From Amphiscolops sp. MND2022 (Eukaryota), in NCBI GenBank assembly GCA_964187785.1, contig OZ076414.1, positions 53,382,001 to 53,446,000 of the forward strand: a stretch of DNA of 64,000 nt, given 5' to 3'. A model generated the notes under the pieces. The model saw only the letters and a program-made list of their open reading frames with translations. It was not told the origin of the DNA and did no database searches. This document shows, piece after piece, positions 23,002 through 53,706 of the stretch (position 1 is its first letter; each line of letters opens with the position of its first letter). The position numbers were made by a program, and so were the translations under genes.

Positions 23002-23213
23002 CTGACAGTAGTGATGACGATCGAAAAAAATAGAAAAAACGATATTGCTATTATAAAATTTGGTTATAAAAAAGCCTAACGTTAGTAATGTTACACAACA
23101 TTGTATATCTTAAATACAAAACTGGTCAACTACCTAATTAAGTTGAGCTGAATAAATTGAAATACTTGCAATGTGTGGACTTGCTTTCTTCAATCGTGCA
23201 GTTTTTTTCGGAA

Positions 23214-25075: not shown

Positions 25076-25113
25076 TTTCATAATTTCTAGACATCAAAAG
25101 CGAAAAGGAGAGC

Positions 25114-25176
25114 AGTAGTAAATGTACGTGGCATTATATGTGGGGGGGGGGGGGTTGAGTGAGTAACCGAATATGG
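25114..25176 (+). repeat. Left terminal inverted repeat (63 bp)
   Basis: AGTAGTAAATGTACGTGGCATTATATGT-G13-TTGAGTGAGTAACCGAATATGG. Confidence 0.95.
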
Positions 25177-25192
25177 TCATAACACGGACTCC

Positions 25193-25448
25193 AAATGACG
25201 TCATGATTGCGACACAATGACGTAACCGAATGCAAAACATTTAGAATAACGTCACCAATCATTACATTTCATTGGTTGACGAAAAAAAACGACTAACAAA
25301 AGTGGAATGGTTTTTGTTAAAAATAACGCAGACTTCAAATAACGTCATGATTGCGACACAATGACATAACCGATTGCAAAAAAAACATTTAAAATGACGT
25401 CATCAATCATTACATTTCATTGGTTGACAAAAAAGAGCGACTAACAAA
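25193..25448 (+). promoter_or_regulatory. Tandem ~110-bp duplicated subterminal element with CRE and CCAAT-like motifs (putative promoter/enhancer)
   Basis: Two diverged copies (~25193-25300 and ~25338-25448); TGACGTCA at 25196-25203 and 25395-25402; CCAATC and ATTGG motifs. Confidence 0.45.
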
Positions 25449-25726
25449 ATGGTTTTTTCCATTGAGCCAAGCAAAAACTGAGTCTAAATAAAGATAGTTT
25501 TCTTGGTGATAAAGTAGTACTTTGCACAAATCCTAATTATCTTGCCTTCTTCCTTCTAGTGGGATCTGTTGGTATCCAGGTTTGAGCCTCAGAACATCCT
25601 CAATATTCTTTCCTAGTATTTGTGCAAGGGCTACTTTTCGACAAAAAAACACTGTTGGTTCAAAGCGAAAAGTGTAAATTCTCTACATTAGTGTTTTCGT
25701 GAATACTACTTCGAATTTAAAGATTT

Positions 25727-25942
25727 ATGGATATTGAAATTTTGAGCAATGATTCGGAGAGTCTTGCAACAGACAGCGGTTATAATTCAATGGTGTCATT
25801 TGACGAAGATGATGATGGTGATGATGGTCTGATGCATCTCAATGTTGAGGTTGTAGAACTGTTTGAACGCTTGTTGTCATGGCTGGATCAAGTTCAACAA
25901 ATTGACGACATTTTGCAAGACTGGATGATTGATGATGAGTAG
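25727..25942 (+). CDS. 71-aa acidic hypothetical protein with DSGxxS motif
   Basis: ATG-initiated ORF directly downstream of the left subterminal region; DSGYNS at residues 16-21, an acidic tract and an amphipathic C-terminal helix. Confidence 0.5.
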   Translation: MDIEILSNDSESLATDSGYNSMVSFDEDDDGDDGLMHLNVEVVELFERLLSWLDQVQQIDDILQDWMIDDE

Positions 25943-26041
25943 TATGTATGATGATGTCGAAGAATCTGGAAGGAAAAATATTTTTATGAATTCAGGCTGA
26001 ACGAAATGAAAACCAAACTTTGAAAACTCTTTTACCTTTTT

Positions 26042-26866
26042 TCACGAATCTGACGGATTTTTTCTTTTCCGAGACGCTAATTCAAACTGTTGAGCCAGCG
26101 TTTTTGCAGTCTCTAAGTCTTCCATTGTTATCAAGGGCTGTCCCGACGAGTCAACCAGGTCAGGAAACAATTCAGCAAACGTGCAGGTTTTGTTTTGCAT
26201 TTTCTTAATAAAAGTTAAAAGCTTTACAAACATTAGTGAATTGAATACTGACAGGGGACAAAATTCAGCTACTCTCACTTGTTTCTTTAAATCTGAGGTT
26301 GTAGCTTTTGAAACTTTGTCTTCGAGCAGTTCCACTTTTTTCAGCAATTCAAGTTCCTCCATGTTCAAATTATCAGTGTTCTAAAGCAAAAATAACCTTG
26401 TCCATGTCAGAGAATTTTACAGCAAGAAAAAGCAAAGATTACCTTTAAACTTTGTTCAAGATAGCTACTTGTGGATGGCTTGTTGTTACCATCAGCTTTA
26501 TCATCCTCAAAGTACCATGCGACCTTGTTTTTATCATCCTCTATGAACAATTTCTCCAAGAGGTTCCTTTCTGATTCGTCAACTTGGTATTCCGCAGCAT
26601 CGTCCGGAAACAACACTTTATTTTGTTTGTTACTGTTAAGGGCAGTATTTTTTTGACTAACTGTGCTGTCATCACCAAGAGGTGTGTCTGAAACATCATT
26701 AATACAAGCTCGCAATTGGACTATATTTCACCTCTGGTTGGATTATGTTTAAATGTTTACCTAAACCAATAATTGCTTGTCTCGTCCTCTTTTTCTCTTT
26801 GCGAAAAACAGTAGGAGGAACAGTTGTATTTTTTCGAGTCGGTGGTGTCCATTCATTGTTAGCCAT
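26042..26866 (-). CDS. Polinton hypothetical protein, 3 exons (26866-26761, 26720-26443, 26380-26042), 240 aa
   Basis: GT-AG introns 26721-26760 (40 nt, GTAAAC..ATAG) and 26381-26442 (62 nt, GTAATC..TTTAG) fuse three ORF pieces in frame; basic N-terminus and C-terminal RKRK. Confidence 0.65.
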
Positions 26867-26958
26867 TTCTGAAAAGTTGATGAGCTTTCATCGAAACTGA
26901 AAGAAAAAAAACAAATATATTCAAACCAGTTTTATAGAGAAAAAACTTCAGAGTTACC

Positions 26959-29900
26959 CTATACATTTATTGGGGATGTTGTAACACCATCATGCACAAA
27001 TCGTTTGTAATAAAAATATGTTATAGACATTTTGTTTTGTTTATATGTGAACATGTTTCCTCGGTAGTAGCGAAATCCCTTGTTAGTTCCTTCGTAGGGT
27101 ACTTTGTTGAACAAGACAGATTTAAATCTTTCCAATGGCGACACTAGATTTTTGTTGCTTCCTTTAAGAGCCATTTTCATCTTTTTGTTGTTTTCGTCAA
27201 ATGCACAGTAGGTTTTGCTGTTGAGACAAATCATTTCCGTTCCTTTCCATTCAATTTTGAAAAGTCCAGGTGTCCTTTTATCCATTGCACCGTGTTCTTT
27301 ACAGCAGCTTCGTGTTAGAAAATTCAGTTGAGCATTTGGTAGATAGCAATCTTCTTGTTCATGATAATGCTTTGCATTTTCTTGCATTTGTGATTTCGCG
27401 ACCTCATTGAAACATTCGTATAGATCGTTTTCCGTCAAAGCCATGTAGAAAGAGTCTGTGTCCATCTCTATAGCACGGAAAGACCTCGGTCTCATAATTC
27501 TGCCGAGAAAGTCGTAACGAAACTCTAACATTCTTTGTTTTCCATTGTTTAGTACTGTAAAACCAACGAGAATGGGTTCATCGTGCACAATTTTTCTTTT
27601 AGCCATGTTGATTTCGTATATTTTTTCATCCACAATGTCATAGGACCGGAATTTCGGAGAATTGATTTTTTGATCAACTTTTCTTTCATCAACAAAAAGC
27701 GTTTTTTGAAATTTTGATTTGTTTATGAGTTGGATGCCATATGCGCTGTTTCCAATAAGTTTGGATGTTTCTGCAATCACACTGAGCGACTTGTCTACAT
27801 CTCCTCGACGCCTGTTTTCTGTTACAAAATCCAAAAAATCTTTGAAGGGTTGTGCTTTTTTGTAACAAAGAAACTGGTAGCATTTTGTTACAACCAAACC
27901 ATGTTCTAAACACCACTTGATGTAGTCGGTAGATAACATTATCTTTTCTCCAAAGTAGCTGGCGACAAGACATTTCCAACCGTTTTTCATCAGACCGAAC
28001 TCTTTGGCATAATCTTGCATTTCCGCGGAAAGATGTTGCCTCTCGACAGTTGTATTTTTGAAGATGGGTGGAAGTTCTTTAAAGTGTTCCTTCAAGTGAT
28101 CTGGAACGTGGATGTCAATTTCAGCTATTCCATAGACTTTTTCTTTCCATACTGCATTGAGAAAAGTCTCCAACGTTGAAAACTTTTGTGGTAGACAATC
28201 AAGTTTTCTCACAAACTCTTTTATTTCGGGGTCTGTTTCTTTAAGCTGATTCCATTGACACTCCCATTGCTCAATCACACGATATCCTGCATTTAGAATA
28301 ACTTCCGTACGCTCCTTGTCATTTTCACGTATTTTCGCCGGTGTTTTTCCATGAATTAGAGGCGGCTGAAACACTTAGCAGTTTGAAGCACTTCAAAAGA
28401 AAGTATGATTCATTATTTCAAAACTAAAATTTTGTCAACTAACCAAACTTATACAGTCATGGGCGTGATGATAACATCCCATAAATTCCCAAACAGTTTT
28501 ACAGGACACACAGATAGCATCGGGAACGAGTGTTCTAACTTGGTGGCGCATATTTGTGAAACGAGTGGTCACTGAACAACTTGGGTTTTGGTCGTGATGA
28601 TGTTTGGAGATAAAAGCAACATACTGTCGTTCGGCTTGTAAAAATTTACTTTTTTCGGAAACTAGAGCGTTGTCGCTGTTGCACACGTAATGAGTCAACG
28701 GTCCAGTTGGCATGTTCCCACCAATAGCAGATAAATACAAAGCGTTGGCATCATAACCAACTATTGATTTGACTATTTCATCATTGATGGCAGTTTCATT
28801 AACTTTTTCGTAACGACTAAACACTATACTTGGTCCTCCAACAATGTTGTTTCGAACACTTTGATACAAATCCTTGTGTTTATAATTGAACAAAAAAATT
28901 CCTTCGCCTTTGTTTGATCGATGTAAAATTTTGTTGGCGGCGCCACTGAGTGTTAGAGTTTCCTTCAGCAAGTCAATCGAGTGTTGTTCATAGAAACGGG
29001 CCATTTTGGTCACAGCCTTGTGGAGGGGATAAACATCAAGGTTATTGTAATATTGTAAATAATCCATCATTGTTTGAAACCCTTCGTGGTCCCATGTTTG
29101 TTTAATGTCCTCATATACTTCCAACCCTGTCTTTGGTCTACTTGGATCAGTGAGGCTGCCTCCGTTCCGAACAAAACTGTTAATCTCGTTCTCCAAAACG
29201 TTTTCATTCTTTAGTGAGGAAAAGACTGCTTCGTAGGGTGGTAATGAAGTTTCTTGTAAAATTTCAAAACTGGTTAGATGTTCGTAAGGAAAGAAAAACT
29301 TGCTGACTTCACTACCATAGGCTTTCAAAAACTTGTCTAATGATGTACCAGCTGCAACAAAATGACTACAGTCCATGAAGCGCAGGTTTGGTGTCGAAAG
29401 GAGTAGGAAGCGAGTATTTCGTTTAATACACTTGATGGATGACAAGCTAACAAAACGCTGCAGAGACTTTAAAAGGTATGACTTTATCAAGTTCAAATCG
29501 TAGAATCCACTATTGAAACCAACAATTGGTAGTTGGTCAATGTATTGTAAGAACTGTGTTCGTGTTCTTTTCAGGAATCTGTGCAATCTCTGCTGTGTGC
29601 TGGATACAGTAGTAGTAGCGGTAGTGGTTTCGTTTAGAGCAGCTTCTTCATCATCTGAGTGTATGTTCTCTCCCATGGTGGTGTCATCTGGTTCAAATTC
29701 TAATAACATTTCATCAATTTGTTCTAGATAGGGTAAAAATTTTTGTCGCTGGTGAGAGATATTTTTGAGGGACAAGTCCATTAAATAGTCTACAAACTTG
29801 TCTACCAAAACGTTAGGGTCTTTTTCCACTAACCATTTTGCAGCCGATTCCTCTGTTGTAATGTTTTGATATATTGCAACCGATACGGGAATATGTTGAT

Positions 29901-31434
29901 GAGTAAACTCCAATTTTTTCGTCTTGATGAAACAATCATCTTGGTTGATATCAAATCCATTTGTTTGCTGTTGTGATGATGACTTTTGTCTCAAAATGGA
30001 TTCAAAATCAAAAGTAACAAAAGACTTGTAGAATCTATGCTCATGCGGAACACAGACATCAAACACGGTCTCTAGCGTCGTGAAAAAAGTGTCAGTGGGC
30101 GTGTATTTCCCACCTGGATAGGAATGATCTGACTTTTCCGAGCATGACTTTAGATGGCGATTCAATTCAAACAGTCGTGAAAAGTACTGTTCACACTTGA
30201 TGCACTTGAATCGTCGAAAAAATACATTTAAATTTCGGATTAGACAAGTGTGATTATCGACTAGAAGCAGATCAACAAAATTGGATTGCATATCCATTTC
30301 CAATGTTTTACTTCGGTATAACAATTCACCTTGTACTACATTATTCACATCAAGCTCAGCTGAAAACACTCGGATGGCGCAAGAACAAAACTTTTCAACG
30401 TCTGGCAGGTCCGTCAGCTCGATACCGGCAAAATCTTGAACGTTCTTTTGCACTCCGCGAATGTACTTTTGAAAAAGTTCCATTGTTTTAGATTCCAATC
30501 CATGCATAGAATTTTGTTGAAAGGCAGCCAAGGCACGAAATATGCAAAGATTATCATTAAACTTTCGTTTCGTAGATCTGCTCTGGGTAAGTGTCCAAAC
30601 ACTCCTTGCGGATTTGATGAAATCCGGAATATCTATTACATCTTGATCGGTGCTGCCCATTGGCAGGCGTGACAAGTGTGTGGCATGTAGAGAGACGTTG
30701 GTTAAACAGAAGAAAGTCCATTTTGTGCTGTCGCGAAAGTTTGTAAATTTTTCAATGAAGTCAGTGCTGAAAATGTCTTGTTTTAACAGTTTGAAGTGTT
30801 CAAAGTTTTCTACTAGCTTTGGTTTGGGTAAGACCGTTGTATTGTCACTTGAGTAGTAGTACCGATATTCGCCAGTTTCGTTGTTTGAGAGAATGTATCC
30901 AAAACTGACATTCATTTTGGATACCCTAGTTATTTTTGCAAAAGCTTCATCGAGTACATTACAAATATTATCAATCCCTTCATCCTTCAAAAGAAAATTG
31001 ACAGTTGTTTGGTGGGGTAGCAAAACAATTTGATCCCCCATAATGTGTCTCTTTCTACGAACAAGTTCTTTCAGTGATTCATCATCGCCAAATTGGGCAT
31101 CGTTCAGTTGAGAATTTGGTGATTTTAACATTTCATGTTCGGTATGTGTATGCTGTTGCAACTTGAGCATTGTTGCAAAGGTTGAATCACAGTAGCCGCA
31201 TTTGAAGTTTTTCTTTTTCACATGCTTCAGAGATTTATGAGTGTTGAGGTCTTGGCTACTTTTTGCAATGTATTTGCACTGTCCGCAGTGTAAATCATCC
31301 TTGTCGTGGGTCTTTTCATGTCGGTTTCGGTTGTATTTGCGCGAAAACTCTTTTCCACATTTACTACAAACAAAAGTTAGAAGGGATTGCTGAGAAGTTG
31401 AAGGAGTTGCTGTTGCGCCGTCAGACGACTGCAT
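26959..31434 (-). CDS. Protein-primed family B DNA polymerase (pPolB), 2 exons with intron 28366-28443
   Basis: Exonuclease motifs TFDFES and GFNSGFYDL; motif A SIVGYDANALY; motif B KLIGNSAYG; motif C EMDTDS; KMALKG. GTTAGT...TTTCAG phase-0 intron joins HDCISL|PPLIHGK in frame. The ORF track starts at 31500; the likelier Met is 31434. Confidence 0.93.
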
Positions 31435-31435
31435 C

Positions 31436-32041
31436 GTGATGAATAGAGAGCAGCAGCAGCACTTGCCGTCGTTCTTTCGGGAGAAATTCAATCTAAACAA
31501 GTGTCTGTTTGTTACTACAAATTCAAATAATTTTCAAAGTTTTCTGGTAACTCCTGAATTTGCTGTGGCTAAATATCAGACAAACAAGTTTTGTAACAAA
31601 AATAAGCAGTGCAAATATCACATCATGCTTTATGGTTTTGACAATATACAAAACAAGTTGATGCATCTGAATTATGATTTTGAAAATGTAAATTGTCCCA
31701 ACAGTTATTTCAAATTCTTCATTATTCTTTCGGAAAAAGTTGTTTGTATTCATGGAAACTTCCTCATGGAACCTTTGTTATTAGCTACCAAACACAATCG
31801 TATAAATCGAAGCAAAGAATGTGTCACGAGTCTACTTTGGAGACGGATTGGTCGGAAAAAAAGGAGACGACACTCACCAGCAACAACCAACAGAGGGCCA
31901 CAACACACTATAGCGTCGCTGATGAATATTGTTCAAATGCAGATTGTTGTCGCGACTCGTCTATTGGAAATTTTGCAACAACATTCTTCATCTGAAATTT
32001 CCACAACCACCACAAATGACATCAGCACAATAACCGAGTAA
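31436..32041 (+). CDS. Hypothetical ORF in the divergent region; true start and frame uncertain
   Basis: 201-aa ORF with an RKKRRR basic patch, overlapped by a competing 100-aa ORF (31693-31995); no family motif recognised. Confidence 0.3.
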   Translation: MMNREQQQHLPSFFREKFNLNKCLFVTTNSNNFQSFLVTPEFAVAKYQTNKFCNKNKQCKYHIMLYGFDNIQNKLMHLNYDFENVNCPNSYFKFFIILSEKVVCIHGNFLMEPLLLATKHNRINRSKECVTSLLWRRIGRKKRRRHSPATTNRGPQHTIASLMNIVQMQIVVATRLLEILQQHSSSEISTTTTNDISTITE

Positions 32042-32154
32042 TTTTCCTTTGCAAGCTTACCTTGCAACATCAAATCATTACTTTTGTTCACTACCTACAG
32101 TTCAGTTGTTATTTGCTGATTCAAAAAATTTTGACAAAATAAAAAATTTTCATC

Positions 32155-32787
32155 ATGTCATCAACTGCTGTCATCAACCCTGTTGATTGTAAAGTGTTGA
32201 AATGTTTTAAAGTTGAAGTTAGTACAAAACGTTACCTTTTAATTACAGTTAAAAGCTATCCGTCTTCTTCAGAAAGCTATACAAGTATTCAACTTTTCAA
32301 GTTGGATGAAGAGACCAAGGAATACACACCACAAAAGTATTTGACTCTCAAGTTTCAAGAATTAAACAAAATTCCTTGGGACGACGTTTACACCAACGTT
32401 GTCAATGTCTTCGACTTTTCACTAGACGTTCGCATGCCCTACCACAAGAATGATATGGACTATTTTGACTTCATCTTTGATGTTCAAGACTTTATCTCAA
32501 ACAAATCGAGAGTCGTCAGAGTAGCTTCCAAGCGTTATCCTCAAGCAACCTACTTGTACTTAAAACTCTTTATTCAACATCAAAAGCGCTGGAAAATGCA
32601 ACAAACAATAGACATTTCTTGGATGGAGCTATCTCATTTATTGAGTGTTGTCAAAGAGATTCAGAGCTACCCAAATGGAATACCTAAAGAAGGAAGTCCA
32701 ATCACAGAGACTGGCTTATTTCGTCCAATCGCAACATTGACTAACCCAGAAATCAGCAGCAGCAGCGTCAGTAGCAATAACCATTAA
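32155..32787 (+). CDS. Polinton protein with two tandem PC4-like (ssDNA-binding) repeats
   Basis: Internal duplication KRYLLITVKSY...IQLFK...LTLKFQELNKI / SRVVRVASKRY...LKLFI...IDISWMELSHL resembles the PC4 strand-strand-helix pattern. Confidence 0.55.
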   Translation: MSSTAVINPVDCKVLKCFKVEVSTKRYLLITVKSYPSSSESYTSIQLFKLDEETKEYTPQKYLTLKFQELNKIPWDDVYTNVVNVFDFSLDVRMPYHKNDMDYFDFIFDVQDFISNKSRVVRVASKRYPQATYLYLKLFIQHQKRWKMQQTIDISWMELSHLLSVVKEIQSYPNGIPKEGSPITETGLFRPIATLTNPEISSSSVSSNNH

Positions 32788-32835
32788 CAAATTTTTTGAG
32801 TGCTTCATTACCTCTCTTACTCTTACAGAATTTAG

Positions 32836-33465
32836 TTGCTTGCTTGCATGATGGCTGATTTCAACTACATTATTACGTTTGTTTTGGATGTGGAGTTTTT
32901 AGAAGTTGACGTAGTTAAAGAAATTAGTGTAACCACACCGTACCACTCCGTATCTTTATCATTCAAACCTCCCAGACCATGGAAAGATCTAACCCGTGAA
33001 GAACAACTGGAATACAACAACAATAACAACACTCTCAATGTTCCGTGGGATGAAGGCGCTATTGACTATAAGGAACTGAGGAACGCTGTATACACCCTCA
33101 TTCCACCAGGAGTCATGAAGTATGCAAAAGGAGTGCAAAAGTGTGACTTTTTCTCTCGTTTTTTCCATTTCAAAATTCACAATTTGGAAGACATGGGCTG
33201 CCCTGACGCCTCTGCAATCCAATATTTGACAAATAAGAACATTAAGGAGAACAACGACAACGACGACGACGACGACGACAAAGAGAACAGGCCGTTGTGT
33301 CCCAATTTTCCCAAATATCCCAATCATTATGAAAAATGTGCAGCCATCAATAGTAAGCTTTATCTCAAGTGGTTAGCCAATAAAATTAAAGAAGATCCTG
33401 CTGCTGCGGAAATGGCGCGAAAGACTTCCCCGCTGCGCAACGATGCAGCACTCATACTCATGTAA
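32836..33465 (+). CDS. DEDD/DnaQ-like exonuclease-family protein
   Basis: N-terminal LDVEF (D-x-E), VKEISV, FKPP..W, WDEG..Y..L, YAKG.QK, NLEDMGCP and C..H...CA pattern typical of a Maverick-associated exonuclease-like family. Confidence 0.55.
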   Translation: MLACMMADFNYIITFVLDVEFLEVDVVKEISVTTPYHSVSLSFKPPRPWKDLTREEQLEYNNNNNTLNVPWDEGAIDYKELRNAVYTLIPPGVMKYAKGVQKCDFFSRFFHFKIHNLEDMGCPDASAIQYLTNKNIKENNDNDDDDDDKENRPLCPNFPKYPNHYEKCAAINSKLYLKWLANKIKEDPAAAEMARKTSPLRNDAALILM

Positions 33466-33494
33466 TTATCATCATCATTTGTTAAATTTGCAGC

Positions 33495-33758
33495 ATGACT
33501 GATCAGCCGGACCTTGCAGTGCAAGAATTCGTTTTTGATGAGAATAACCAAGAACGCAAGCCTTGGACACTTTGCGGCAAGCCTATTCCACGGTCCGAAA
33601 TTGTCTTTTTCAGTCAATTACTTGTCATTCTTATGGTTATCTCATTTTGTATTTTCAAACTTTCTGTATCATCTTCAAACGATAAAGACAAGCCGGTTTG
33701 GATTGCCTTGCTGGCCAGTGCACTGGGATCTATTCTACCCAATCCGACACTGAAATGA
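33495..33758 (+). CDS. Small two-pass membrane protein (87 aa)
   Basis: Hydrophobic segments IVFFSQLLVILMVISFCIFKL and VWIALLASALGSILP; stop overlaps the ATPase start (ATGA). Confidence 0.65.
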   Translation: MTDQPDLAVQEFVFDENNQERKPWTLCGKPIPRSEIVFFSQLLVILMVISFCIFKLSVSSSNDKDKPVWIALLASALGSILPNPTLK

Positions 33759-34489
33759 ACAAGGTCATTCCCACTGACAACCATGTGTTTATGTCTCTTG
33801 TTGGTCCATCCGGCTCTGGAAAGACTACTCTTTTGTATAAACTTTTAACCTTGCCAGTGTTTCAACCAAGGTACCAATCTGTTATTTTTTTCTATCAACA
33901 TTATCAAGAAGCGTACGAAAAATTGAAGCGAGATGTTGAAGAAATTGAATTCATACAAGGACTAGACTTTGATTTGATCAATCAATCATTTACACATGAC
34001 GGAAAAAAACGCTTGCTAATTTTTGATGACTTTTCAGAGGAACTTTTAAAATCTAAAGATTTCACTCGGATTGCTACCGCTGGTAGACACTTGGGCTTGC
34101 ATGTTTTGTATATTAAGCATAATTTATTTCATAAATCACCCATTGGAAGAGACGTAGAGTTGCAGTTGACTCATATTGTGCTTTTTCAATCTCCCCGTGA
34201 CATTAATCAAATTGAACGACTTGGGCAACAGTTGGGCAAGCAAAAATTTTTACCTCTATGCTATAAGGATGCCACATCCAAACCTTTTGGATTTCTCATG
34301 ATTGATCTGTCACCCAAAACATTGGATCTTTTACGATTTTGTACAAATTTGGAGCCAACAGTTTTCTATATACCCAGTGAAAAGGCCCGCATTACAGAGA
34401 TTGACGATGACTACACAACAAGTTATTACGCTGCAGCATTTCAAGAGTCTTTCACTGGTCGACCGGTTGGACATGTTGAAAAGATGTGA
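33755..34489 (+). CDS. DNA-packaging ATPase (FtsK/HerA/A32-like)
   Basis: Walker A LVGPSGSGKT, Walker B LLIFDD, ATAGRH, KHNLFHK; uninterrupted. Confidence 0.93.
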   Translation: MNKVIPTDNHVFMSLVGPSGSGKTTLLYKLLTLPVFQPRYQSVIFFYQHYQEAYEKLKRDVEEIEFIQGLDFDLINQSFTHDGKKRLLIFDDFSEELLKSKDFTRIATAGRHLGLHVLYIKHNLFHKSPIGRDVELQLTHIVLFQSPRDINQIERLGQQLGKQKFLPLCYKDATSKPFGFLMIDLSPKTLDLLRFCTNLEPTVFYIPSEKARITEIDDDYTTSYYAAAFQESFTGRPVGHVEKM

Positions 34490-34712
34490 GGACAATTTCA
34501 TTGAGTTTCTGGCCGAATCAGTTGTAAACATTTTGCAAGGTGTAGTGCCCGGAATCAGGCGGAAAGACATTGAAAAGTTCAAGCCACAAATTGTGCGAAT
34601 CATTTCGACCAAAGCAACTCTTGCGGAACAGCGGGCCATATTCACTTCCCGAAAGGGGCTCTTGTTGCTAGATGTTATTATCGAGCATGTTATTCAATAC
34701 TTTTTAAGTTAG
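34407..34712 (+). CDS. Conserved small Polinton protein overlapping the ATPase 3' end (101 aa)
   Basis: R..ML...EDNFIEFLAESVVNILQGVV...R.IF...GLLLL, a pattern typical of the ORF that follows Polinton ATPases. Confidence 0.55.
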   Translation: MTTQQVITLQHFKSLSLVDRLDMLKRCEDNFIEFLAESVVNILQGVVPGIRRKDIEKFKPQIVRIISTKATLAEQRAIFTSRKGLLLLDVIIEHVIQYFLS

Positions 34713-34717
34713 TAGTA

Positions 34718-35437
34718 ATGGAATTGAAAAAATTTGTATTGATACCTTTTTCACAGTACAAGAGTCAATTGGCATCGAGTAGGCCTGTCAGCACAGTATT
34801 GTACGATTCAAAATTGACCAATGAGGAAAAGACTAAAATTTTGCCTACATTGGACAGAAAAAAAAGGAGAGCTGCTGCTGTTGTAAGCACGCCCACCACC
34901 ACGGTCACTGCTAGCACCGTACCTGCAAGTAGTAGTAGTAGTAGTAGTAGTACAACAAAGACTATTGATCGTCAAAAGGAGGCAATTTTGTTGGATGTGG
35001 GTGGAAGCGAAACTACTCAAAGACGTAGCGCTTCGTTGTACGACAAAATTTTGTCTAACCCAAAAATAGAATTGACAAGTGAAGGTACAATTAAGCTGGA
35101 AAATTCCGACACAGACATTCCTCTCAGCACATTTTTATATAGATTACAGAACCCTTTTCCAAAAAGTAGTCCAGTAACACGACAGTTTTTGGACATTGTT
35201 GAAAATGTGAAAATCCCCGAACACTTGATTGCAAATCAGTCTCTGTTGAAACATCAAAGAAGTAGACAAAATAAAGCTCCTCCTCTCGTCGGCTCGGACG
35301 ACGACGCCGACGATGACGAAGAGGACTTTGAAAGCGTCGACGAAGGTGCAGGTAGCAGCAGCAGCAGGGCAACAAGCGGCAAAGAAAAGAAAGGAAAAGA
35401 ATGGTATTCAGTCAAGGGCGAAAAGAAACAATTTTGA
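34718..35437 (+). CDS. Polinton hypothetical protein, Ser/Thr-rich with acidic C-terminus
   Basis: 239-aa intact ORF starting MELKKFVLIP, between the ATPase cluster and integrase. Confidence 0.65.
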   Translation: MELKKFVLIPFSQYKSQLASSRPVSTVLYDSKLTNEEKTKILPTLDRKKRRAAAVVSTPTTTVTASTVPASSSSSSSSTTKTIDRQKEAILLDVGGSETTQRRSASLYDKILSNPKIELTSEGTIKLENSDTDIPLSTFLYRLQNPFPKSSPVTRQFLDIVENVKIPEHLIANQSLLKHQRSRQNKAPPLVGSDDDADDDEEDFESVDEGAGSSSSRATSGKEKKGKEWYSVKGEKKQF

Positions 35438-36365
35438 AAAAGACAGAGAAAAAAGATTGTTGGAGAAAGCTTGGAAGAGTGGTTTCTCAGCATATGGATC
35501 GCGTCAGAATTTGCAAAAAGCTACAAAATTGTCCGTGAAAAAAGTTGATGCCTTTTTGCAAGGTAAAAACTCCTACACAAAATTTTTCATTCCCCAGCGT
35601 AGATCCTATCCCCGATTGACGACACTTGCTTTCGACATTAACGACATTTGGTGCATGGACGTTGCTTACGTCGATAAAATTGCCATGCCAAATGATGGTG
35701 TAAAATTTTTACTAGTCTGTGTAGATGTCTTGTCACGCTACTTGAGAGTGGAACCACTGAAGCGACTGACATCTGTTGCTGTGAAAGATGGTCTAGTTGC
35801 CATGTTAAATAAATGCCCGACAGTACATCCCAACAAAATTTGGACCGATCAAGGTCGAGAGTTTGAGGGAGAATTTCGCAACTTTTGCAAAACTGTTGGA
35901 ATACACCAATATAATTCGTTCAGCGGTACAAAAGCAGCGTTTGCTGAGCGAGCCATTAGAGCCTTGAAGGCCCAAATTGTTCGGTATCTCGAAGAGGAGT
36001 GGATGTGGCGCTATATTGACAAGTTGCCAGACTTTGTAAAAACTCTCAACGACCGTGTGAATCGATCAATTGGTATGGCACCGTCAAAAGTTGAGAAAAA
36101 ACATGTGCTCAAACTTATCGCACTCAAACAAAGGTCTGCAGTGATGAAAGAAAAAAAGGCCAAGTACAAGGTGGGCGACTTTGTACGCATTGCTTCAAAG
36201 AATGTACCCTTTAGAAAAGGATATCTGCAACAGTTTACAAATGAAATTTTTTCCATTTCCACCGTGTTCTCCACTCATCCACCGTCTTACATTTTGCGCG
36301 ATGAAAAAGGCCAAGAAATTCAGGGCAAATTTTACGAAGCTGAGATTATTAAAGTACTTAAGTGA
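35313..36365 (+). CDS. Retroviral-type (c-integrase) DDE integrase
   Basis: IWCMDVAY (D), IWTDQGREF (D), AFAERAIR (E); C-terminal FRKGYLQQFTNEIF...GKFYEAE. Confidence 0.95.
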   Translation: MTKRTLKASTKVQVAAAAGQQAAKKRKEKNGIQSRAKRNNFEKDREKRLLEKAWKSGFSAYGSRQNLQKATKLSVKKVDAFLQGKNSYTKFFIPQRRSYPRLTTLAFDINDIWCMDVAYVDKIAMPNDGVKFLLVCVDVLSRYLRVEPLKRLTSVAVKDGLVAMLNKCPTVHPNKIWTDQGREFEGEFRNFCKTVGIHQYNSFSGTKAAFAERAIRALKAQIVRYLEEEWMWRYIDKLPDFVKTLNDRVNRSIGMAPSKVEKKHVLKLIALKQRSAVMKEKKAKYKVGDFVRIASKNVPFRKGYLQQFTNEIFSISTVFSTHPPSYILRDEKGQEIQGKFYEAEIIKVLK

Positions 36366-36407
36366 AAAAAATACATTTCACAAATCATTTTTCAGCTTTA
36401 ATCGACA

Positions 36408-36872
36408 ATGAGTGGTTCATTCCACAAACAAAACCCATTAAACAATTATTACCGTGGTCCCGTTAGACAAAGAGGAAGTGGCATTGGGTCTTTAGCCCTC
36501 AAAGTTGCACGTCATGCACTACCACTTTTGTCCAAGTACGTTTTGCCCTCTGCCAAAAGAGTGGGAAAAGATTTTGCTTTGAATTTGTTGCCCGAAGTAT
36601 TTGATGTTGTCACTGGTCGTGGTGGTGAACCAGCAACATCTTCAAGCATTAAAAAGGCAGTAAAGCGTGCAGCGGGAAAAACAGTAAAGAAACAATTGGG
36701 CACTGGTGCAGCAAAAAAGAAGAGACGACAACAGTCAGTTGGAAAGAGTTCCAAGACCAAAAACAGTCGCACAGCAAAAAAGGGCCGCAAAAAAACATCA
36801 GGAGGCAAAACAACAACAACGAAAAAGACTCAAAAACGCAAAAAGATTGACATTTTTCAAAACTTGCCTTGA
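36408..36872 (+). CDS. Lys-rich putative virion core (pVII-like) protein
   Basis: YY...RQRGSGIGSL motif (adenain-type GxG cleavage context) and a highly basic C-terminus, immediately upstream of the MCP. Confidence 0.7.
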   Translation: MSGSFHKQNPLNNYYRGPVRQRGSGIGSLALKVARHALPLLSKYVLPSAKRVGKDFALNLLPEVFDVVTGRGGEPATSSSIKKAVKRAAGKTVKKQLGTGAAKKKRRQQSVGKSSKTKNSRTAKKGRKKTSGGKTTTTKKTQKRKKIDIFQNLP

Positions 36873-36907
36873 CGGTCAATAACATTCGTAATATTATTCT
36901 CAAAACA

Positions 36908-38206
36908 ATGACGACGACGGCGGCGCACATAATACCTAAACCGGCAACCCACTCTAGTCTGGACATTTTTTCTAAGCCAGAAGTGCTTGTGTCTTTTGAC
37001 AATTCGTTTGAACAAGAAACGTTGCCAGTCACTGCACACGATGCACCAGTTTTTGAGTTTGTACTCACCACTGATCGAAACATTTACTTGGATTTGCAAA
37101 GCGTCGAATTAAAGTTGGAGGCAAAAATTGGAAAGGGCGCCAATGGCAATACTAATTTGGAGACGGAGTTGGCTGGAGGCAACACTGTAGCTAAAGCAAC
37201 CGACAAAGTCAGCTTCATCAACAACACTCTACACTCCTTCTTTTCCAATTGGGACATTTTAATCAACAATGAAATTGTACACACGTCCAACAATTTGTAT
37301 GCACAGAGAGCTTTTGTTGAAACGGAACTGTCCCACACACAGGGCTGTGCCACAACAAAGCTCATTACGCAAGGCTACAACTTTGAGCCCGCCACCGGTG
37401 ATATGCTTGCCCACCGAGAAACATGGACCTTAGGTTCCGCTTCAAAGACATTTTATGGAAAACTGGCGGTGGATTTCCTGGCTTGTGATCAACTTCTCAT
37501 TCCCAATTGTTCTATGCGAATTCGACTGACACGTAACAAGCCCGAATACTTGCTGCAAAGTGCTGTCACCAACCCTGCCTTCACCCCAAAAATTGAACGA
37601 GTGTCAATTTTTGCTCGTTACTACACTGTTGCCGAAAACTATCACGTCAATTTACAACGATCTCTACTCAAGTGGCCTGCTAGATACAACTATTTTGAAG
37701 TACGCAGCAAGACATTTGTGATTCCAAGGGACCAAAGTCATTTTATTCGTGAAGACATTTTCAATGCAGAACCCATTAGACGCATGGTACTGGCCATGTG
37801 TCCCAACAATCAGTTTACTGGACGTTGGACAGACACTCCGCTCGCATTCCACAAACACAATTTGAAGAAAGTGCGAGTATTGCGGAATGGTGTGCCAGTG
37901 GTGGAATATAGCACAAGTTCCAACACTCAACTTTACTTTAAGACTATTCAAAACCTCCATTTTGATCAAGACGGTCCCCTAATCAAGTTGGACAATTATG
38001 AAAATCACTACTATCTAGTTTTCGACCTTACCTCCACACTACAGTGCAATCAAGAAATTTACTACCCCGAAATTGTGGGAGCACCAATACGGATCGAGCT
38101 CGAATTTTCGACCAACACTAGCACGCCTTTGGAGCTGTTTGTGCTGGGAGAACGATTTACAACAGTTCAAATTGATCATACAGGCAAAGTGTTGAAACAT
38201 GGATAG
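36908..38206 (+). CDS. Major capsid protein (double jelly-roll)
   Basis: SLDIFSKP, FINNTLHSFFS..DILIN, LYAQRAFVETEL, GKLAVDF..DQLLIP, FDLT motifs typical of the Polinton MCP; intact. Confidence 0.92.
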   Translation: MTTTAAHIIPKPATHSSLDIFSKPEVLVSFDNSFEQETLPVTAHDAPVFEFVLTTDRNIYLDLQSVELKLEAKIGKGANGNTNLETELAGGNTVAKATDKVSFINNTLHSFFSNWDILINNEIVHTSNNLYAQRAFVETELSHTQGCATTKLITQGYNFEPATGDMLAHRETWTLGSASKTFYGKLAVDFLACDQLLIPNCSMRIRLTRNKPEYLLQSAVTNPAFTPKIERVSIFARYYTVAENYHVNLQRSLLKWPARYNYFEVRSKTFVIPRDQSHFIREDIFNAEPIRRMVLAMCPNNQFTGRWTDTPLAFHKHNLKKVRVLRNGVPVVEYSTSSNTQLYFKTIQNLHFDQDGPLIKLDNYENHYYLVFDLTSTLQCNQEIYYPEIVGAPIRIELEFSTNTSTPLELFVLGERFTTVQIDHTGKVLKHG

Positions 38207-38627
38207 TGCAGCCTTGCTACAAGTTATTTCCAAAATTCCCGCACTAAAATATCGATACTTGGGTTGCTTCGACCCCAATACTTTCATTTTCCCAATGCCA
38301 ATAGACACTTTTCAAATTGTAAACACCACTACAGACGTTGAGGGACATTGGATAACGTTGATTCGCTTATCCAACGGTTTTCACTATTTTGGAGATTCCC
38401 TGAAAGCAACAAGCTTGAATCAGTACCCAATGTTGTTTACCCGACTGCCACCACCGCCAGAACAGAAAAAGACAACAACATTATTTCTACCTTTGAACAC
38501 TTCAATAAAGCAGGTCGATTCCTTGTGTGGTCTCTATTGTATTTATTTTGCATGGAACTTGTTTGATAATACACCTAAAGTGACGAATGATTTTGAATTG
38601 TATCAATTGTTTTGTAATCTTTTATAG
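38199..38627 (+). CDS. Adenain-like cysteine maturation protease
   Basis: Catalytic set GHWI (H), FGDS (D), Q..SLCGLYC (Q, C). Confidence 0.9.
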   Translation: MDSAALLQVISKIPALKYRYLGCFDPNTFIFPMPIDTFQIVNTTTDVEGHWITLIRLSNGFHYFGDSLKATSLNQYPMLFTRLPPPPEQKKTTTLFLPLNTSIKQVDSLCGLYCIYFAWNLFDNTPKVTNDFELYQLFCNLL

Positions 38628-38659
38628 AAAAAAAATGTTTGTAAAGAAAGTTTTTTTTT

Positions 38660-39557
38660 TCAATCAGTAATTGCAGGCACATGTTTTTTGCGAAAATGTA
38701 AATTTAAAACTACAAGACCCAAACTGGTAAAGGGAATTAATTTTCCCTTCATATCTCGAATCTCAATCTGTATACTATTGAAATTATCCAAACAAACATT
38801 TCGATACTGCAAATTGGAAAAGGATCGGTTGTCGTAAGGGTATATGACAATCAAATCCTCATTTCGTTCGTTGACGAAATGTGAAGGCACGTAAAAGTTG
38901 GTTCTTCACATTGCCCACGTTACTAAAGTCTACAATATCACTGTATACAAAAATTGTGTGAAAACGTAAGATATCACAAGGGTAGGGAGCAATGATTTGG
39001 TTGGCTTCACAGTACACAGCATCCGTTCCCAATCCCAAAATTTGAGCCAAGTCATCACTTTGAATTTTGAAGTATACACGGCTCTGTCCTTCTGTAGTTC
39101 CTTCAAACGTGAATGAAAGGTTCAAAGTTTCCTCGTTGTAAGCAAAGGTCATTGTCCTCTCCATGTTTGTAAAAGTAGCAATTTGAGAATTCATTGCGTC
39201 AATAATTTGACCAATTTCTGTGTAACAACCCTTTGGAATGTTAAAAGAACGATATTGATTCAAAAAGGGCACATCTGGATAACTATTTATAAGTTCCTTG
39301 CTGACAGTATCAGGTTTGTTTACAACAACACGATATCGTTGAAGAGTCGGTGTAGGAATATAGCCTAGCGTGAATTCACCGTCGGTGACATTGTATACTC
39401 GGTTTGGGAACGAAATGTCTGTCAGTGCAACTTCCCATTCACTACCTCTGCCCAAATTGATTGGATTTGACATAAAGTTTGAAAAAAATGCCAGAGTATT
39501 ATTTGGATAAATGTCCAAACTTGCATTAGACAATAGATCAATGTAAAAGGAAGTCAT
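38660..39557 (-). CDS. Minor capsid (penton) protein, interrupted by a 1-nt frameshift near 38877-38879
   Basis: N-terminal FYIDLLSNAS..IYPNNT..F...WEVAL..I.FP; the C-terminal IQIEIRD..GKLIPF...LHFRKK lies in the +1 frame (ORF 38660-38890). Confidence 0.85.
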
Positions 39558-39616
39558 TGTTTTAGGGAACTGTATAGGAAACACAGAATTTGATTGAATG
39601 AGAGTCAATCACTCAT

Positions 39617-40012
39617 TCATTCATCTTCACTGCTGCTGCTGGAGCCAATCATCAGCTTTACCCTCTTTAGTTTTTTCTTTTTCGGTTGGCGAGAACATTT
39701 TTCGTCGTCGACATCCGCCGAAGTTTCTGCGTTGCTATCTGTATTATCGGATATCGACCAATAAGATCGTAAGGATTCTTCGTATTCTTGTGTTCCCAAT
39801 TGATTCTCCGTAATGGGCACTAGTGTGTTTTCCAAACGATTGAACTCTCTTCTCAATTCCAGACTCAAACAACCTGGATGTGTGCATTCCATTTCTTTCC
39901 AGTCATACGTTTCCAACAACATCAAATCAACAGAGTATTGACGGGGCAGTTGCGGCGGACTAGGAGCTGTCAAGTCAAAAACACTTTGGTCGTCAGTGTC
40001 ACTTTCTCCTTG

Positions 40013-40044
<32 letters not shown>

Positions 40045-40330
40045 TCGATCTGAGCATTTTTTTTGCCGTATCAACTGTAACTTGAGCACTAATTAAGTGC
40101 AATAAATGAACCGGTAGGAGAAAAGACTCAACAATTTTCCATTCATCATTTGTTGCTGAGTTTTTCACTTCCTTTATTAGGATTGCCGACGCTCCGAAAT
40201 GTGTCTTGTAGGCAAATATACGTTCGACGTCATTACGTTGTGTGAATATGTAAATCATTGTTTCCAACAACAACAAATTTATTCTGAAAACAATAATGTT
40301 AAAACTACTGCAAAAAAAAACAACAATCAT
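39617..40330 (-). CDS. Polinton hypothetical acidic protein with C-terminal NLS-like motif (alternative start 40258)
   Basis: 237-aa ORF with a poly-Asp tract and QPKKKKLKR near the C-terminus. Confidence 0.6.
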
Positions 40331-41098
40331 TTTGTGTTAAGGAGATTCAGCAGTGACCAGTAGAATGGATGAGAGCTGCTTGCTTGAAGAAGCGTGTTTT
40401 TAATTGATGGGAAAAAAGTTTATAAAAATTATACGTTCTAATGCAAAAATTTTTGCAGTGTGGAAAAAGGGTAGAATTTGCTATGTTACGTTGATCATTG
40501 TGAATCTTGTATAGTTGTCGGGTGGTAAACAAGAGCTACTCTAACTGCTATTCTCAGTCAATAAAGATGAAAACAAAAAAAATTTTTGAAAAAAAAATTC
40601 AGAACAAAATATTGAGTGAACCCTAGACATGGGCACATCAAATTCGTCTAATTTTTCGTCCCGAATCTAAATTTTGCATCAAAACGGCGTTTCTCGTAAA
40701 ATTGGGGTTTTTCAAAAATTTTGCCCTATGGGGGGATTTTTCCCCTTTCGGAAAATAATTTTTCAAATGGTTATTTTTTGGTCTTTCCAATGATATATAT
40801 GACAATGGGTGTTCGTGATAGTCATTGACAAGTGAAATTTCGAGTTTTAAAATTGAAAAAAATGACTGAAACTAAGTTTTTCCGTGAATCGAAACCATGC
40901 ATTCATGTTTAAATTTTAATTCCAACCAGAATATGACAAAGATACCTCATTTCAGAATTTTTCATTTTTCTCCATGATAAGGGGTTGTTGACGTTACAGT
41001 TATAAGTAGAAATTGAATATGTACAAAACTAGATTCACATCCTTAAAGTGAGTCTTGAAGAATATTAGTGTTAAATGAAGAAAACTACAACTTAGCTA

Positions 41099-42313
41099 TT
41101 AGTTGTTTTTGGGAGACGCCAATTGAAGAACATCGAGCAAAGTTCGTTCCAAAAACTGCCGAGTGTAGTGAAATTGGTCAGTCATGTCGACGCCCCTGGT
41201 ACGCATCTTGTGCACGTTCAAAGATTTGCACTTTTCGAGCTGTTTCTGCAAAACTTTATCGACCCTTTTCTTGTTCGAATTGGGAAGAAGTTGATTACGT
41301 CTCGCCAGACCAATCACTAGTTTGACACCTTTAGTTCTGCAAACTCTGTTCCAGAGCATTAGTTTTTCCGTAAGGTCTTTAGGTGACAGTGTTGAAACAC
41401 TATTGTTCCCTTAAACACATTGTTTCCCAATCAACAATCTTTTTTTAATCGCAAAAAAACTCAATTTTGTTGCTACGGGGCAACAGGGTTAGGGTTAGGG
41501 TTAGGTTTGAAAAAAAAAAACAAAAGAGTACAACTAACTTGGTGGCATTGTGAGCGAATTGTAGAGAATGTCGGGAAAGATAAAGACGAACTGACACTCT
41601 GGTCGAGAAAGGGCTCGAAACAACAAGGAGTCAAGGGTAGGTTTTGAAAAGTTTCGTTTAGAAGAGGAGGAGTATTCATGTCGACCGCCACTTTCGGCGA
41701 GAATTTGGATATGTTTATAATGAGATGAATCCTTAATGATTCTAGAAAGATTTGAAGCACCAATAACAATCGCGTGCTTTTTTTCCATAAAACCTGAAAA
41801 CAGATGATGTGTTATTTCATTGTCAGAGCAGAATAGTTTTGGTACTAGAACAAATCGTGCAAGTACAGACAAAAACAAAAAAAACATGCAAATATTCATA
41901 TTAGAACTGATTTTTGATACAATAATACTTATGAGAGTTGTTTATGCGTTTTTGGAGGGCCTGGAGGATACCCACATCAAGGGTACCTTTCCTCCAGGCC
42001 TCCACACATGCGCGCAGGAGCCCGCGCTCGTGCTTTCTGATCGCCCAGAAGGCGAACAGATCGAGCACGGGCTCCATCGCAGTCCCATCGATGTAGGATT
42101 GGATTCCCTGCAGCAAAAAGGTATTGGTTATTTTAACGAGTGTTTAACCTGAAGTTTCGAAAACAAAACTTAACGTACCTCGTGACGACAAATCATCAGC
42201 AAAGCGTCCCATGTCTCCGCCGATATTTCAGTGAGGCAGGAACCTCTACATTTTTTGTTAATTAACCCCCAAGAATAATGATCCAAAAGGTCCAGTTCTT
42301 GGAGATTTAACAT
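41099..42313 (-). CDS. SGNH/GDSL hydrolase-like protein, 4 exons (42313-42179, 42107-41921, 41793-41539, 41409-41099), 295 aa
   Basis: Three GT-AG introns (71, 127 and 129 nt) give one 888-nt frame. Motifs in SGNH order: VIGASN (block I), ESGG (II), DILYNS (III), DQFHY (V). Confidence 0.65.
41485..41505 (+). repeat. Telomere-type (AGGGTT)3.5 tract inside the predicted last intron of the SGNH-like gene
   Basis: agggttagggttagggttagg. Confidence 0.9.
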
Positions 42314-43321
42314 TTTGTTTAGGAAATGGTCTCAAGAATTGTTGCTGGTAACTTTTTGTTGCTGGTTGTTAAGTATTGTTGCTGGTGTTTAAATTTCTGA
42401 GCAAGGAATGAATTTTCCGTGCTCGTCAGGCTCAACCCACTAAGCACCTCCTCCGATTTTTTCGAGTTTCACTTTTATCTGGGAAACATCAAAGATTTTA
42501 ACCCAGGCACAATTTCCATATCTAATCATTTGGAAACTCGGATAAACAACCATATTCACTTTTTAGGGCCCATAAGACCTCGATCAAAGGCTCGGCTATC
42601 TTTTGAACCTGCTTTCAAAGTGTTGCAGGGTCCACCTTTATTCCTTTGAAATTCAGAACCCACCAAATTTGAGTTTCCAAGTGATGAATCAAAGAAAAGA
42701 CCGACACTCTGTTAATTGGCATTGTTTTTTTTTCAGTTATAATGAACAAAAAAATGTTGCCTTCACAATTCCAAAACAAATTAGAAGGCATTTTGATTGC
42801 TTTTTTCCAAAAATTTAGCATTTTTTCCCGAAATTTTCATGCTTTTCTCAGACATTTTAGGTCATTTTGTCTCTTTACAGAATGTGAAAATTCGGTGTAA
42901 AAAGAAGCTGGGATGATTTCCATATGCTTGCTGGAATAGTTAATGACTGTTTCCATTACGCAAATGAAGGCAATATCAGGGAAATTTGTTCCACAGCAAT
43001 CACACTTCTAAAGAAAGGTAATATAATCTAAGAGCACATTCATTTCAAAGTTGCTAGATTAAAAGAATTTTTATTGATTCCATTTCCTTTCATCCCATCT
43101 GCGTTCCATTTCCATTCCTAACAAACCACTCCTTCCATTTTTATTACTTTCCAGCACGCCAAGGTAAGGAACTTTCCTTTCATTGCCTGAAATACGAACA
43201 AAAAATTATCGGGCCTGTATTTTGTTTTCGGATTTTGTTCGGCTCTCGGTGATTTTTTTTTGTTCGGATATGTCATGTTCGTATCGCAAATATTACGTAA
43301 CGTTTCAGAAAGTTTTGTTGT

Positions 43322-43380
43322 CCATATTTGGTTACTCACTCAACCCCCCCCCACATATAATGCCACGTACATTTACTACT
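43322..43380 (-). repeat. Right terminal inverted repeat (59 bp)
   Basis: Reverse complement of the left TIR with G9 instead of G13 and one substitution; homology stops inward of 43322. Confidence 0.95.
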
Positions 43381-43397
43381 GAGAGCTCGATTTTTTT

Positions 43398-45730: not shown

Positions 45731-46381
45731 TTAATGACCACAGGTTTTCTCAAGAATGCCTGGTTCAATTTCATTACAACTTGTAGGAGTCTCGCTCTTT
45801 TGGATTTCTCTTTCTGCGAAAAATTGATTGGGATCCAATTTAGCTTGCTCTTTCAAATACTCTTCTAGTTCTGGTGTCATTTCCGTTGTATCTTCACCAA
45901 TTGTTTCTTTTCCACCGTCGCATTTAGCTCGTTTATTTTTTTGTTTCTCTTTCTGCTTCAAGCGTTTCTCACGCTTTTTCGCAGTTTTTAAATCAGCTAA
46001 TGCTTCATTCTTCAGCAATTTTTCCTGGAATTCTTTTCTCTGTTCTTCTTCTTGGCTCAAAGCTTCATAAAACTGGTTTCGTTTTTGCTCACGACGACGA
46101 ATTCCTCGATACACATGAAATTCTCCGCTACCGGCAGCTGCGGATGATCCCATGACCTCTCGAACAAATTCTGGAGCCTTTCCCAGTTTAGGACCCTGTG
46201 GTCTCTCTGGTATTGACACAGGTCTATCAGGATCTTTCATCATCCTTTCAATTTTGAGTCTCTGGAAATCAGTGTAAGTTTTACAAGGGACAAATTCCTC
46301 TTTTTGTCGTAGAATTTTGTATTTCTTCTGCTTCTTCGGATCATCTTCATCGTCTGGAGGAATGTACATAGACCCGCTCAT
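45731..46381 (-). CDS. PRKRIP1: PRKR-interacting protein 1 homologue (DUF1168 family)
   Basis: QRLKIERMMKDPDRPVSIPE...APEFVREVMGSSAAAGSGEFHVYRGIRRRE...KTAKKREKRLKQK. Confidence 0.93.
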   Translation of the reverse strand: MSGSMYIPPDDEDDPKKQKKYKILRQKEEFVPCKTYTDFQRLKIERMMKDPDRPVSIPERPQGPKLGKAPEFVREVMGSSAAAGSGEFHVYRGIRRREQKRNQFYEALSQEEEQRKEFQEKLLKNEALADLKTAKKREKRLKQKEKQKNKRAKCDGGKETIGEDTTEMTPELEEYLKEQAKLDPNQFFAEREIQKSETPTSCNEIEPGILEKTCGH

Positions 46382-47404
46382 TTTCCAAACCTAAAAAACG
46401 ACGATAGTGAGACAGGTTGAACAATATGTAACAAATACCGAAAAGTTACGTTTCAGGAAGACTTTTTCTCCCCCTCTCAAATGACATATTTGATGATGTA
46501 ACTTTCTTCCTACTATCACTACTAAAAGACTTTATTCCTTTTGATTTTAGGAATATCAAATCAGAACCGATGGAACTATGTCAAATTACTAGCAATCCAC
46601 TAAAACTTACGGAACTATACGGTCCGAGACCTATCGGTTAAATTACGAAATGGTTTTTACAAGTGTTGTATCATGGCGAATGTAAAGTTATATAGGGGAC
46701 CTCTGTTTTTGAGAAAACCCAATCTGTGCTAGAAAGATCGCAAGTCGAGAAGTCACTATTGGGTCTCCGTTATAACCTTATTCAACAGGGCTTTGATAAA
46801 AAGTCATTCCGCATCAGAAATCTCACTCTCGTTTACAATGCTGTCAGAACTGATCCCAATGCATCAATCTCAGTTGATAAAGGTCAATGTCAATGACTAA
46901 ATCAAGCCTAATTGTTGTGAAAGACTTGTTAAATAGCTTCAGAGATGGCAATGACAACATCTCAGACGCTGTTTTGTTGGTTTTCGCTTGGGCTGAAAGA
47001 TCTATCACAACCCGGTGAGATAATTCCATTTGTATTTAATTTAATCAATTTGAGGCTCAGCGTGGGTGGGCGGAAATAGTTCGAAGGAACGGGATCGAAA
47101 ATCAGAGTTAGTCCTCAGGTCGACAATACCAAATTTTTGAATGGGATCGAAACAACTCGGATCGAAATTTTTATAACGTAGTCAGATATGTTCACATACC
47201 CCTAGTGCCCTGAATGCAGGAGCGAAGCGAAGCGGAGCGACGTGCCATATGGCCATGCCTCAATGTTGCTACTTGGCGAAGGGAGCGAAGCGACCGACCC
47301 ATACAACAAATACGATAAAATTCGACCGCATTCCATTCGATCCCTGTCATTCGATCAAAAGGTTCGACCTCAGTCCTTTCGACCAGAAAAATTCGACCTA
47401 TTTA

Positions 47405-48125: not shown

Positions 48126-48133
48126 TCCTCCCC
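48126..48133 (-). promoter_or_regulatory. Polypurine tract
   Basis: Minus-strand GGGGAGGA immediately precedes the TG of the 3' LTR. Confidence 0.6.
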
Positions 48134-53640: not shown

Positions 53641-53706
53641 AGTAGTATTGCTCTGGTCACCATCAGGTTGGGGTGCTAGGTGCTGTAAGATCGCTTTGCG
53701 GTCCTC

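Follow-up and report, generated by a model that had tools for sequence, protein, structure and literature searches.

A Polinton/Maverick element in the window, as we term the whole 64,000-nucleotide stretch of DNA analysed here, was found to carry a predicted four-exon cargo gene (41099..42313), which is encoded by the minus strand and set back about 1.1 kb from the element's right end. In its C-terminal two thirds, the predicted product probably adopts an SGNH hydrolase fold.

Results

Structure of the Polinton

The element occupied 25114..43380 (18,267 bp, no strand assigned) and ended in AGTAGT//ACTACT. The left terminal inverted repeat (TIR) was imperfect, about 124 bp long and located at 25114..25237 (plus strand), and the right one at 43258..43380 (minus strand). 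The 6-bp target-site duplication GAGAGC was located on the plus strand at 25108..25113 and 43381..43386. The same end motif and 6-bp duplication have been described for intact Mavericks (PMC8097293), and the ends of the window Polinton are intact. A BEL/Pao-like element and TTAGGG repeats in the window suggested that the host is an animal.

The protein-primed DNA polymerase B (pPolB), with N-terminal zinc fingers and one likely intron, was encoded on the minus strand (26959..31533) and was 36% identical to the pPolB of Polinton locus L010 over 969 columns. On the plus strand were found an A32-type packaging ATPase (33686..34489; Pfam Pox_A32, E 3.9e-10), a retroviral-type integrase (35250..36365; Pfam rve, E 7.2e-12), a small basic protein (36402..36872; 34% identity with the syntenic ORF of L010), a major capsid protein of 431 aa (36851..38206) assigned by synteny and size, and an adenain-like protease (38196..38627), 35% identical to an L010 ORF that matched Pfam Peptidase_C5 at E 0.0009. 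With pPolB, integrase, A32 ATPase, protease and capsid genes all present, the last by synteny only, the element belongs to the Polintons. The small basic protein, which we take to be pX-like, had no Pfam match and no PLA2 domain, the putative capsid protein received no Pfam or PDB label, and the PLA2 family was absent from the 13 element ORFs scanned with Pfam.

At about 28.4 kb, the minus-strand pPolB frame was broken by a stretch that contained stops, had GT..AG ends and formed a gap in the alignment to the uninterrupted L010 polymerase. It is likely a spliceosomal intron within a core gene. For intact vertebrate Mavericks, an absence of introns is reported (PMC8097293). Polymerase-region ORFs were also split at loci L026 (13040-13230) and L008 (4380-4600); the interruption was AT-rich in both cases, and its ends resembled a splice donor and acceptor. 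Adjoining the left TIR of the window Polinton (26042-26866, minus strand) was another gene that is probably spliced, with three exons, about 230 aa and no family. A pair of subterminal direct repeats, each about 145 bp long, lay just inside this TIR (25179-25449). ORF-only annotation misses or fragments Polinton genes of this kind, probably three in the window element.

Exon structure of the cargo gene

Read along the minus strand, the gene consisted of exon 1 (42179..42313; 45 codons of an N-terminal module), predicted intron 1 (42108..42178, 71 nt, with strong donor and acceptor), exon 2 (41921..42107 as bounded by the sequence-only reading, with an alternative end at 41987), predicted intron 2 (41794..41920, 127 nt), exon 3 (41539..41793; SGNH-like blocks I-III and a length-variable poly-Ser loop), predicted intron 3 (41410..41538, 129 nt, at a position common to diverged relatives) and exon 4 (41099..41409; the basic C-terminal half with block V). 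As that reading had claimed, the joined exons (135+187+255+311 nt = 888 nt) gave an open frame of 295 codons followed by a stop, and each of the introns was bounded by GT..AG. The length of intron 3 is in frame, yet five stops lie inside it, and telomere-like CCCTAA repeats are present. The first 121 nt of exon 2 had a GC of 0.61 and a GC3 of 0.78, and no full homolog of exon 2 was retrieved.

The exon boundaries were compared with related proteins. P0092 and P0094, read-through ORFs of diverged copies at about 45% identity, were collinear with exons 3 and 4 (33/76 identical residues in exon 3 and 43-54% in exon 4), and their unalignable insert began where intron 3 does, at a shared P-P-S/T point. 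P0158 had the same start Met and matched exon 1 at 27/45 residues (60% identity, 76% similarity); it read through intron 1, rejoined at the start of exon 2 and then passed by a deletion into exon 3, where 67/71 residues (94%) were identical to the window. The read-through of intron 2 changed frame between copies, but exon 3 kept its register, which fixed the acceptor of intron 2 and led to the rejection of a signal-peptide start upstream of exon 3. Introns 1 and 3, together with the acceptor of intron 2, are backed by these relatives, and this part of the proposed structure stood; the intron-2 donor and the end of exon 2 were doubtful. Among the candidate donors 41920, 41971 and 41986, the one chosen earlier (41920) was weak, with 2/7 consensus positions, whereas the in-phase donor 41986 had 4/7 and would give a product of 273 aa instead of 295. 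At the codon equivalent to 41920, P0143 has Ala, where GT would encode Val. The GC held at 0.50 for 46 nt beyond 41986, which favoured the longer exon 2. The choice of donor leaves the SGNH-like part untouched. Host splicing of the four-exon gene is predicted from these sequence comparisons. The description of the gene as invisible to ORF calling was right for the gene as a whole, although exons 3 and 4 were each called as unnamed ORFs in the public protein set.

Distribution among sister copies and relatives

The profile search scored 7999 candidates and returned 32 proteins, ten of whose clusters yielded 50 members, and the exon-4 search found 5 proteins with E values no higher than 0.001, one of which (P0093) was dropped as a repeat-rich chance match. 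Close exon-3/4 ORFs were found on contigs of 64 distinct sizes. The 90% cluster of the capsid protein comprised 167 members, of which 15 were listed. Of the 14 listed ENA members, 8 were on a contig of equal size to one bearing an exon-3/4 ORF; equal size stands in for contig identity here, and the window's own copy may be among the entries. The occurrence of exon ORFs on many contigs together with the capsid gene indicated that the gene is a regular part of this Polinton family, as its earlier designation as Polinton-borne cargo implied.

That reading had also allowed for a separately inserted host fragment absent from sister copies; the exon ORFs were present in many copies. A host fragment confined to one copy, or an intronless ORF starting with a signal peptide in intron 2, is thus largely refuted and very improbable. 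The latter drew on intron 2 being open in the exon-3 frame and reading as a hydrophobic leader; however, this leader shifts frame or is missing among copies, P0158 links exon 1 to exon 3, and the candidate was rejected.

A second multi-copy family of the gene (P0090, P0091, P0092, P0094 and P0095), about 45% identical and decayed, was present on five contigs. Since the close copies were mostly ~80-100% identical to the window, residue retention at the ~45% level weighs more. Among 77 metagenome Polinton loci, most of them too short to reach the cargo arm, no clear homolog was detected (best profile match L075, E 0.0027), and a conserved role in the virion was therefore rejected for the gene. 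No GDSL family was found by Pfam in 115 of the 226 ORFs from 11 longer Polinton loci, the viral contigs contained no relative of the capsid protein, exon 3 or exon 4, and exon 3 matched 0/50 candidates among longer proteins. The family Phospholip_A2_4 matched no exon of the gene; it scored in L052 (1479-2027) and L061 (3010-3576), two Polinton-like loci with TBP, PLA2-like and KilA-N/DUF3627 genes.

SGNH assignment

The motifs VIGASN, SGG, YNS and DQFH were read from the spliced sequence in the order previously described. The Ser, Gly, Asn and His of blocks I, II, III and V therefore occur in order, with an Asp-x-x-His; on the minus strand, the codons for Ser (41753-41755), Gly (41687-41689) and Asn (41558-41560) lie in exon 3, and those for Asp (41177-41179) and His (41168-41170) in exon 4. 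The canonical G-D-S of block I and G-x-N-D of block III were replaced by G-A-S and L-Y-N-S. The residue before an SGNH Ser is usually described as Asp, Asn, Gln or Thr, and solved members vary as well, for example GQSNM, GSSEL and SLGGNT (PMC10792757). Block I of the gene resembled GQSNM of the acetyl-esterase type, and block V had the form D-x2-D-x-x-H, as in PAF-acetylhydrolase (both PMC10792757, Table 2). Because Ala precedes the putative catalytic Ser and block III has neither Gly nor Asp, catalytic (esterase) activity was graded below the fold, as somewhat probable.

In close copies, the Ser was retained in 57/58 proteins where block I was found, the Gly in 59/59 and the Asn in 51/52, with one exon-3 protein left out of these counts; the D-x-x-H was kept in 7/9 exon-4 ORFs and the His was missing in 2/9. 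The relatives at ~45% identity keep IAASN, SGA, LYNS and D/E-R-F-H, and in P0094 Lys replaces the Asn of block III. The spacing of the catalytic residues in the gene was 22 (S-G), 43 (G-N), 84 (N-D) and 3 (D-H). The corresponding values are 22, 30, 84 and 3 in the ZfL2-1 esterase (S143/G165/N195/D279/H282; PMC3905857), and 34, 29, 81 and 3 are given for TesA. The surplus in G-N spacing (43 vs 30) falls in the length-variable Ser-rich loop.

Searches of the ESM Atlas pointed in the same direction. For exon 4, the top named clusters carried the GDSL families PF13472/PF00657 (0.92, 16% and 14% of members; 0.91, 40%), and 10/10 best family matches belonged to one clan, while for exon 3 the sole Pfam-bearing cluster among 30 matches was SGNH/GDSL (0.83, a lead only). 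One third of shuffled proteins also yield a one-clan list, but here the SGNH clan had been named beforehand and both non-overlapping halves agree. The shared-feature counts of 129 and 132 of 256 fell short of the 170 that genuine members of a family usually reach.

Alignment and fold tests were blank. The queries were single exons or natural read-through proteins, the exon 3-4 frame across intron 3 having stops. Pfam, PHROGs and NCBIfam searches with the separate exons and relatives returned nothing SGNH-related, and a PDB sequence search gave weak unrelated matches and no SGNH family. Against a profile of 36 bacterial GDSL_2 domains, exons 3+4 reached 0.1 bits, below the reversed sequence, and hhalign with bacterial GDSL_2 gave 0.5%. 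A block-chain score with author-set spacing ranges was equalled by 30/1500 shuffles and 18/442 real decoy tiles; it also put block II in the wrong place. The AlphaFold models of P0092 and exon 4 had pLDDT values of 46.5 and 54.6 from alignments lacking depth, and fold searches with these low-confidence models matched generic helices; as the models failed for lack of depth, these fold searches carry no information. The SGNH-like assignment was thus upheld by the two Atlas searches and the residue spacing, but not by the HMM-profile and AlphaFold-fold check against SGNH families that had been suggested for it.

The blank tests would also be accounted for by a real spliced Polinton gene that is not SGNH, either an unrelated alpha/beta protein with chance motifs or a neutral passenger, and this fits with near-identical copies, which cannot show selection, and with diverged relatives that look decayed. 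We consider it unlikely, since two non-overlapping halves both point to the SGNH clan, three of the four spacings exactly equal those of the transposable-element esterase ZfL2-1, and the exon 1 of P0158 keeps frame and length at its degree of divergence.

Properties of the product and its N-terminal module

Exon 4 was strongly basic, with 21 K+R vs 8 D+E. No signal or membrane segment was detected, and no exon had a hydrophobic 19-mer above 0.96. The N-terminal module had no Pfam or PDB family match, and its helical character, part of the earlier description, had been judged by eye. A death fold, also suggested by eye, was rejected, as a 4-sequence bacterial profile gave equally good scores to 390 of the 941 shuffles reported.

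A small N-terminal module joined to an SGNH domain with a basic C-terminal half recalls Oskar (LOTUS + OSK). A pseudo-enzyme with the SGNH fold, able to bind RNA, DNA or lipid like the OSK domain and possibly interfering with germline silencing, would also suit the deviating blocks I and III. This was judged quite unlikely: OSK is reported to lack the triad, whereas the triad residues are retained in the gene here and Ser, Gly, Asn and D/E-x-x-H persist at ~45% divergence. In addition, a 14-sequence bacterial LOTUS profile, a weak test, did not report the N-terminus.

Discussion

The closest known counterpart was the ORF1p esterase of ZfL2-1/CR1/RTEX non-LTR elements (PDB 4C1B; PMC3905857), which is also encoded by a mobile element, basic, and built of an N-terminal module and a C-terminal SGNH domain. 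Three of its residue spacings (22/84/3 for S-G, N-D and D-H) are shared with the gene, and intron 3 lies 6 residues past the Asn, where the half-domain hinge R200 of ZfL2-1 is 5 past N195 (PMC3905857). The likeness to 4C1B rests on residue spacing, the PDB sequence search having given no direct alignment. Unlike the ZfL2-1 system, the gene is spliced and carried by a DNA element, its block II-III loop is longer and Ala precedes its Ser; no counterpart of the coiled coil and RNA-binding role of ZfL2-1 was shown in the gene.

The ZfL2-1 esterase has been reported as a slow enzyme that binds anionic lipids via surface charge, and has been proposed to target element particles to membranes (PMC3905857). 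This behaviour, together with the basic exon 4 and the lack of a PLA2 in the element, led us to favour, tentatively and by analogy, a host-spliced, accessory, low-turnover, membrane-binding SGNH esterase carried by the Polinton. After splicing of the four exons by the host, the predicted cytosolic protein would dock on anionic phospholipids through its basic surface, as the ZfL2-1 ORF1p esterase does, and would slowly perform one or a few rounds of hydrolysis on lipid or other acyl esters. Such hydrolysis could assist particles or replication complexes of the element in attaching to membranes, bending them or leaving them, and the more variable N-terminal module might set the target or location. 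The earlier proposal of a role in membrane passage or O-acetyl removal is likewise an inference. Other adintoviruses bear PLA2X or gasdermin-like membrane-active genes (PMC8502044), and the proposed membrane job is that ascribed to their PLA2-type genes, which would not otherwise be covered in the window Polinton.

Lipid-active accessory genes, such as PLA2X and other lipases of adintoviruses, virophages and PLVs, are described as common in this supergroup (PMC8502044, PMC3671162, PMC13768754, bioRxiv 2026.10.13.758929), and SGNH hydrolases are mentioned for virophages. PLA2X differs in fold and is fused to pX in the virion module, whereas the present gene is spliced and lies outside that module. 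Accessory GDSL/SGNH ORFs are also known from retroelements, namely ORF3 of bdelloid Vesta LTR elements and that of Athena/Terminon elements, for which the proposed, putative function is to help membrane passage (PMC5408684, PMC6431247). Their likeness to the Polinton-borne gene is by description only.

The terminal cargo of nematode Mavericks (WASP, KRMA) likewise occupies a terminal slot, has introns and high GC, and combines a variable N-terminal module with a catalytic domain (bioRxiv 2022.07.12.499685). The enzyme class is different here, and the ubiquitin-like N-terminus, horizontal transfer and toxicity of the nematode cargo were not features seen in the window gene. By comparison with those WASP proteases and KRMA kinases, the gene may encode an active SGNH enzyme that modulates the host, either as modular cargo that deacetylates or deacylates a protein, glycan or signal of the host, or as a selfish effector. 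This was ranked as the main rival, although it is a doubtful one. It agrees with an intron-bearing gene adjoining the TIR, a GC-rich exon 2 and a block I like that of acetyl esterases, and the contrast in P0158 between exon 1 (27/45 identical) and exon 3 (67/71) corresponds to the modular pattern of Maverick cargo (bioRxiv 2022.07.12.499685). However, this modularity comes from P0158 alone plus the diverged exon-2 end in P0143, and no peptide deacetylase activity was seen with the ZfL2-1 esterase (PMC3905857).

Each component is already known: mobile elements with SGNH cargo, lipases within the Polinton supergroup, and Mavericks whose cargo bears introns. Their combination in an animal Polinton was not found in the literature searched, although the supplementary genome maps of PMC8502044 or Repbase could hold such a gene; in one paper that mentions both Polintons and GDSL, the latter term refers to Terminons and LTR elements. 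The gene would bring a third enzyme class into the intron-bearing cargo of Mavericks and link this cargo to esterases captured repeatedly by retroelements, and it touches the question of how Polintons cross membranes and what terminal cargo does. As a rather speculative scenario, an animal Polinton lineage may have taken up a retrotransposon-type SGNH esterase and gained introns and exchangeable N-terminal modules, the gene replacing PLA2X as a membrane-active or host-disarming factor. If so, introns in both cargo and polymerase would mark elements designed to be expressed in the nucleus with splicing by the host, in contrast to vertebrate Mavericks, which have no introns. Activity and selection are testable, because the predicted protein is small and soluble, a Ser mutant can serve as control and the family is large and young.

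Other elements were observed outside the Polinton. An LTR retrotransposon was located at 47404-59742; its LTRs were 99% identical, and it contained an integrase ORF and an ORF of 1132 aa without Pfam family. A LINE-like element at 60467-63017 carried a PHD-finger ORF and a reverse transcriptase; no esterase was detected in it, and it is thus not an evident donor. The intervals 6920-11274, 20030-23047 and 45731-46390 contained a BEL/Pao-like remnant (DUF1759, aspartyl protease) and, in long single ORFs, USP5-like, Med11-like and DUF1168 host genes.
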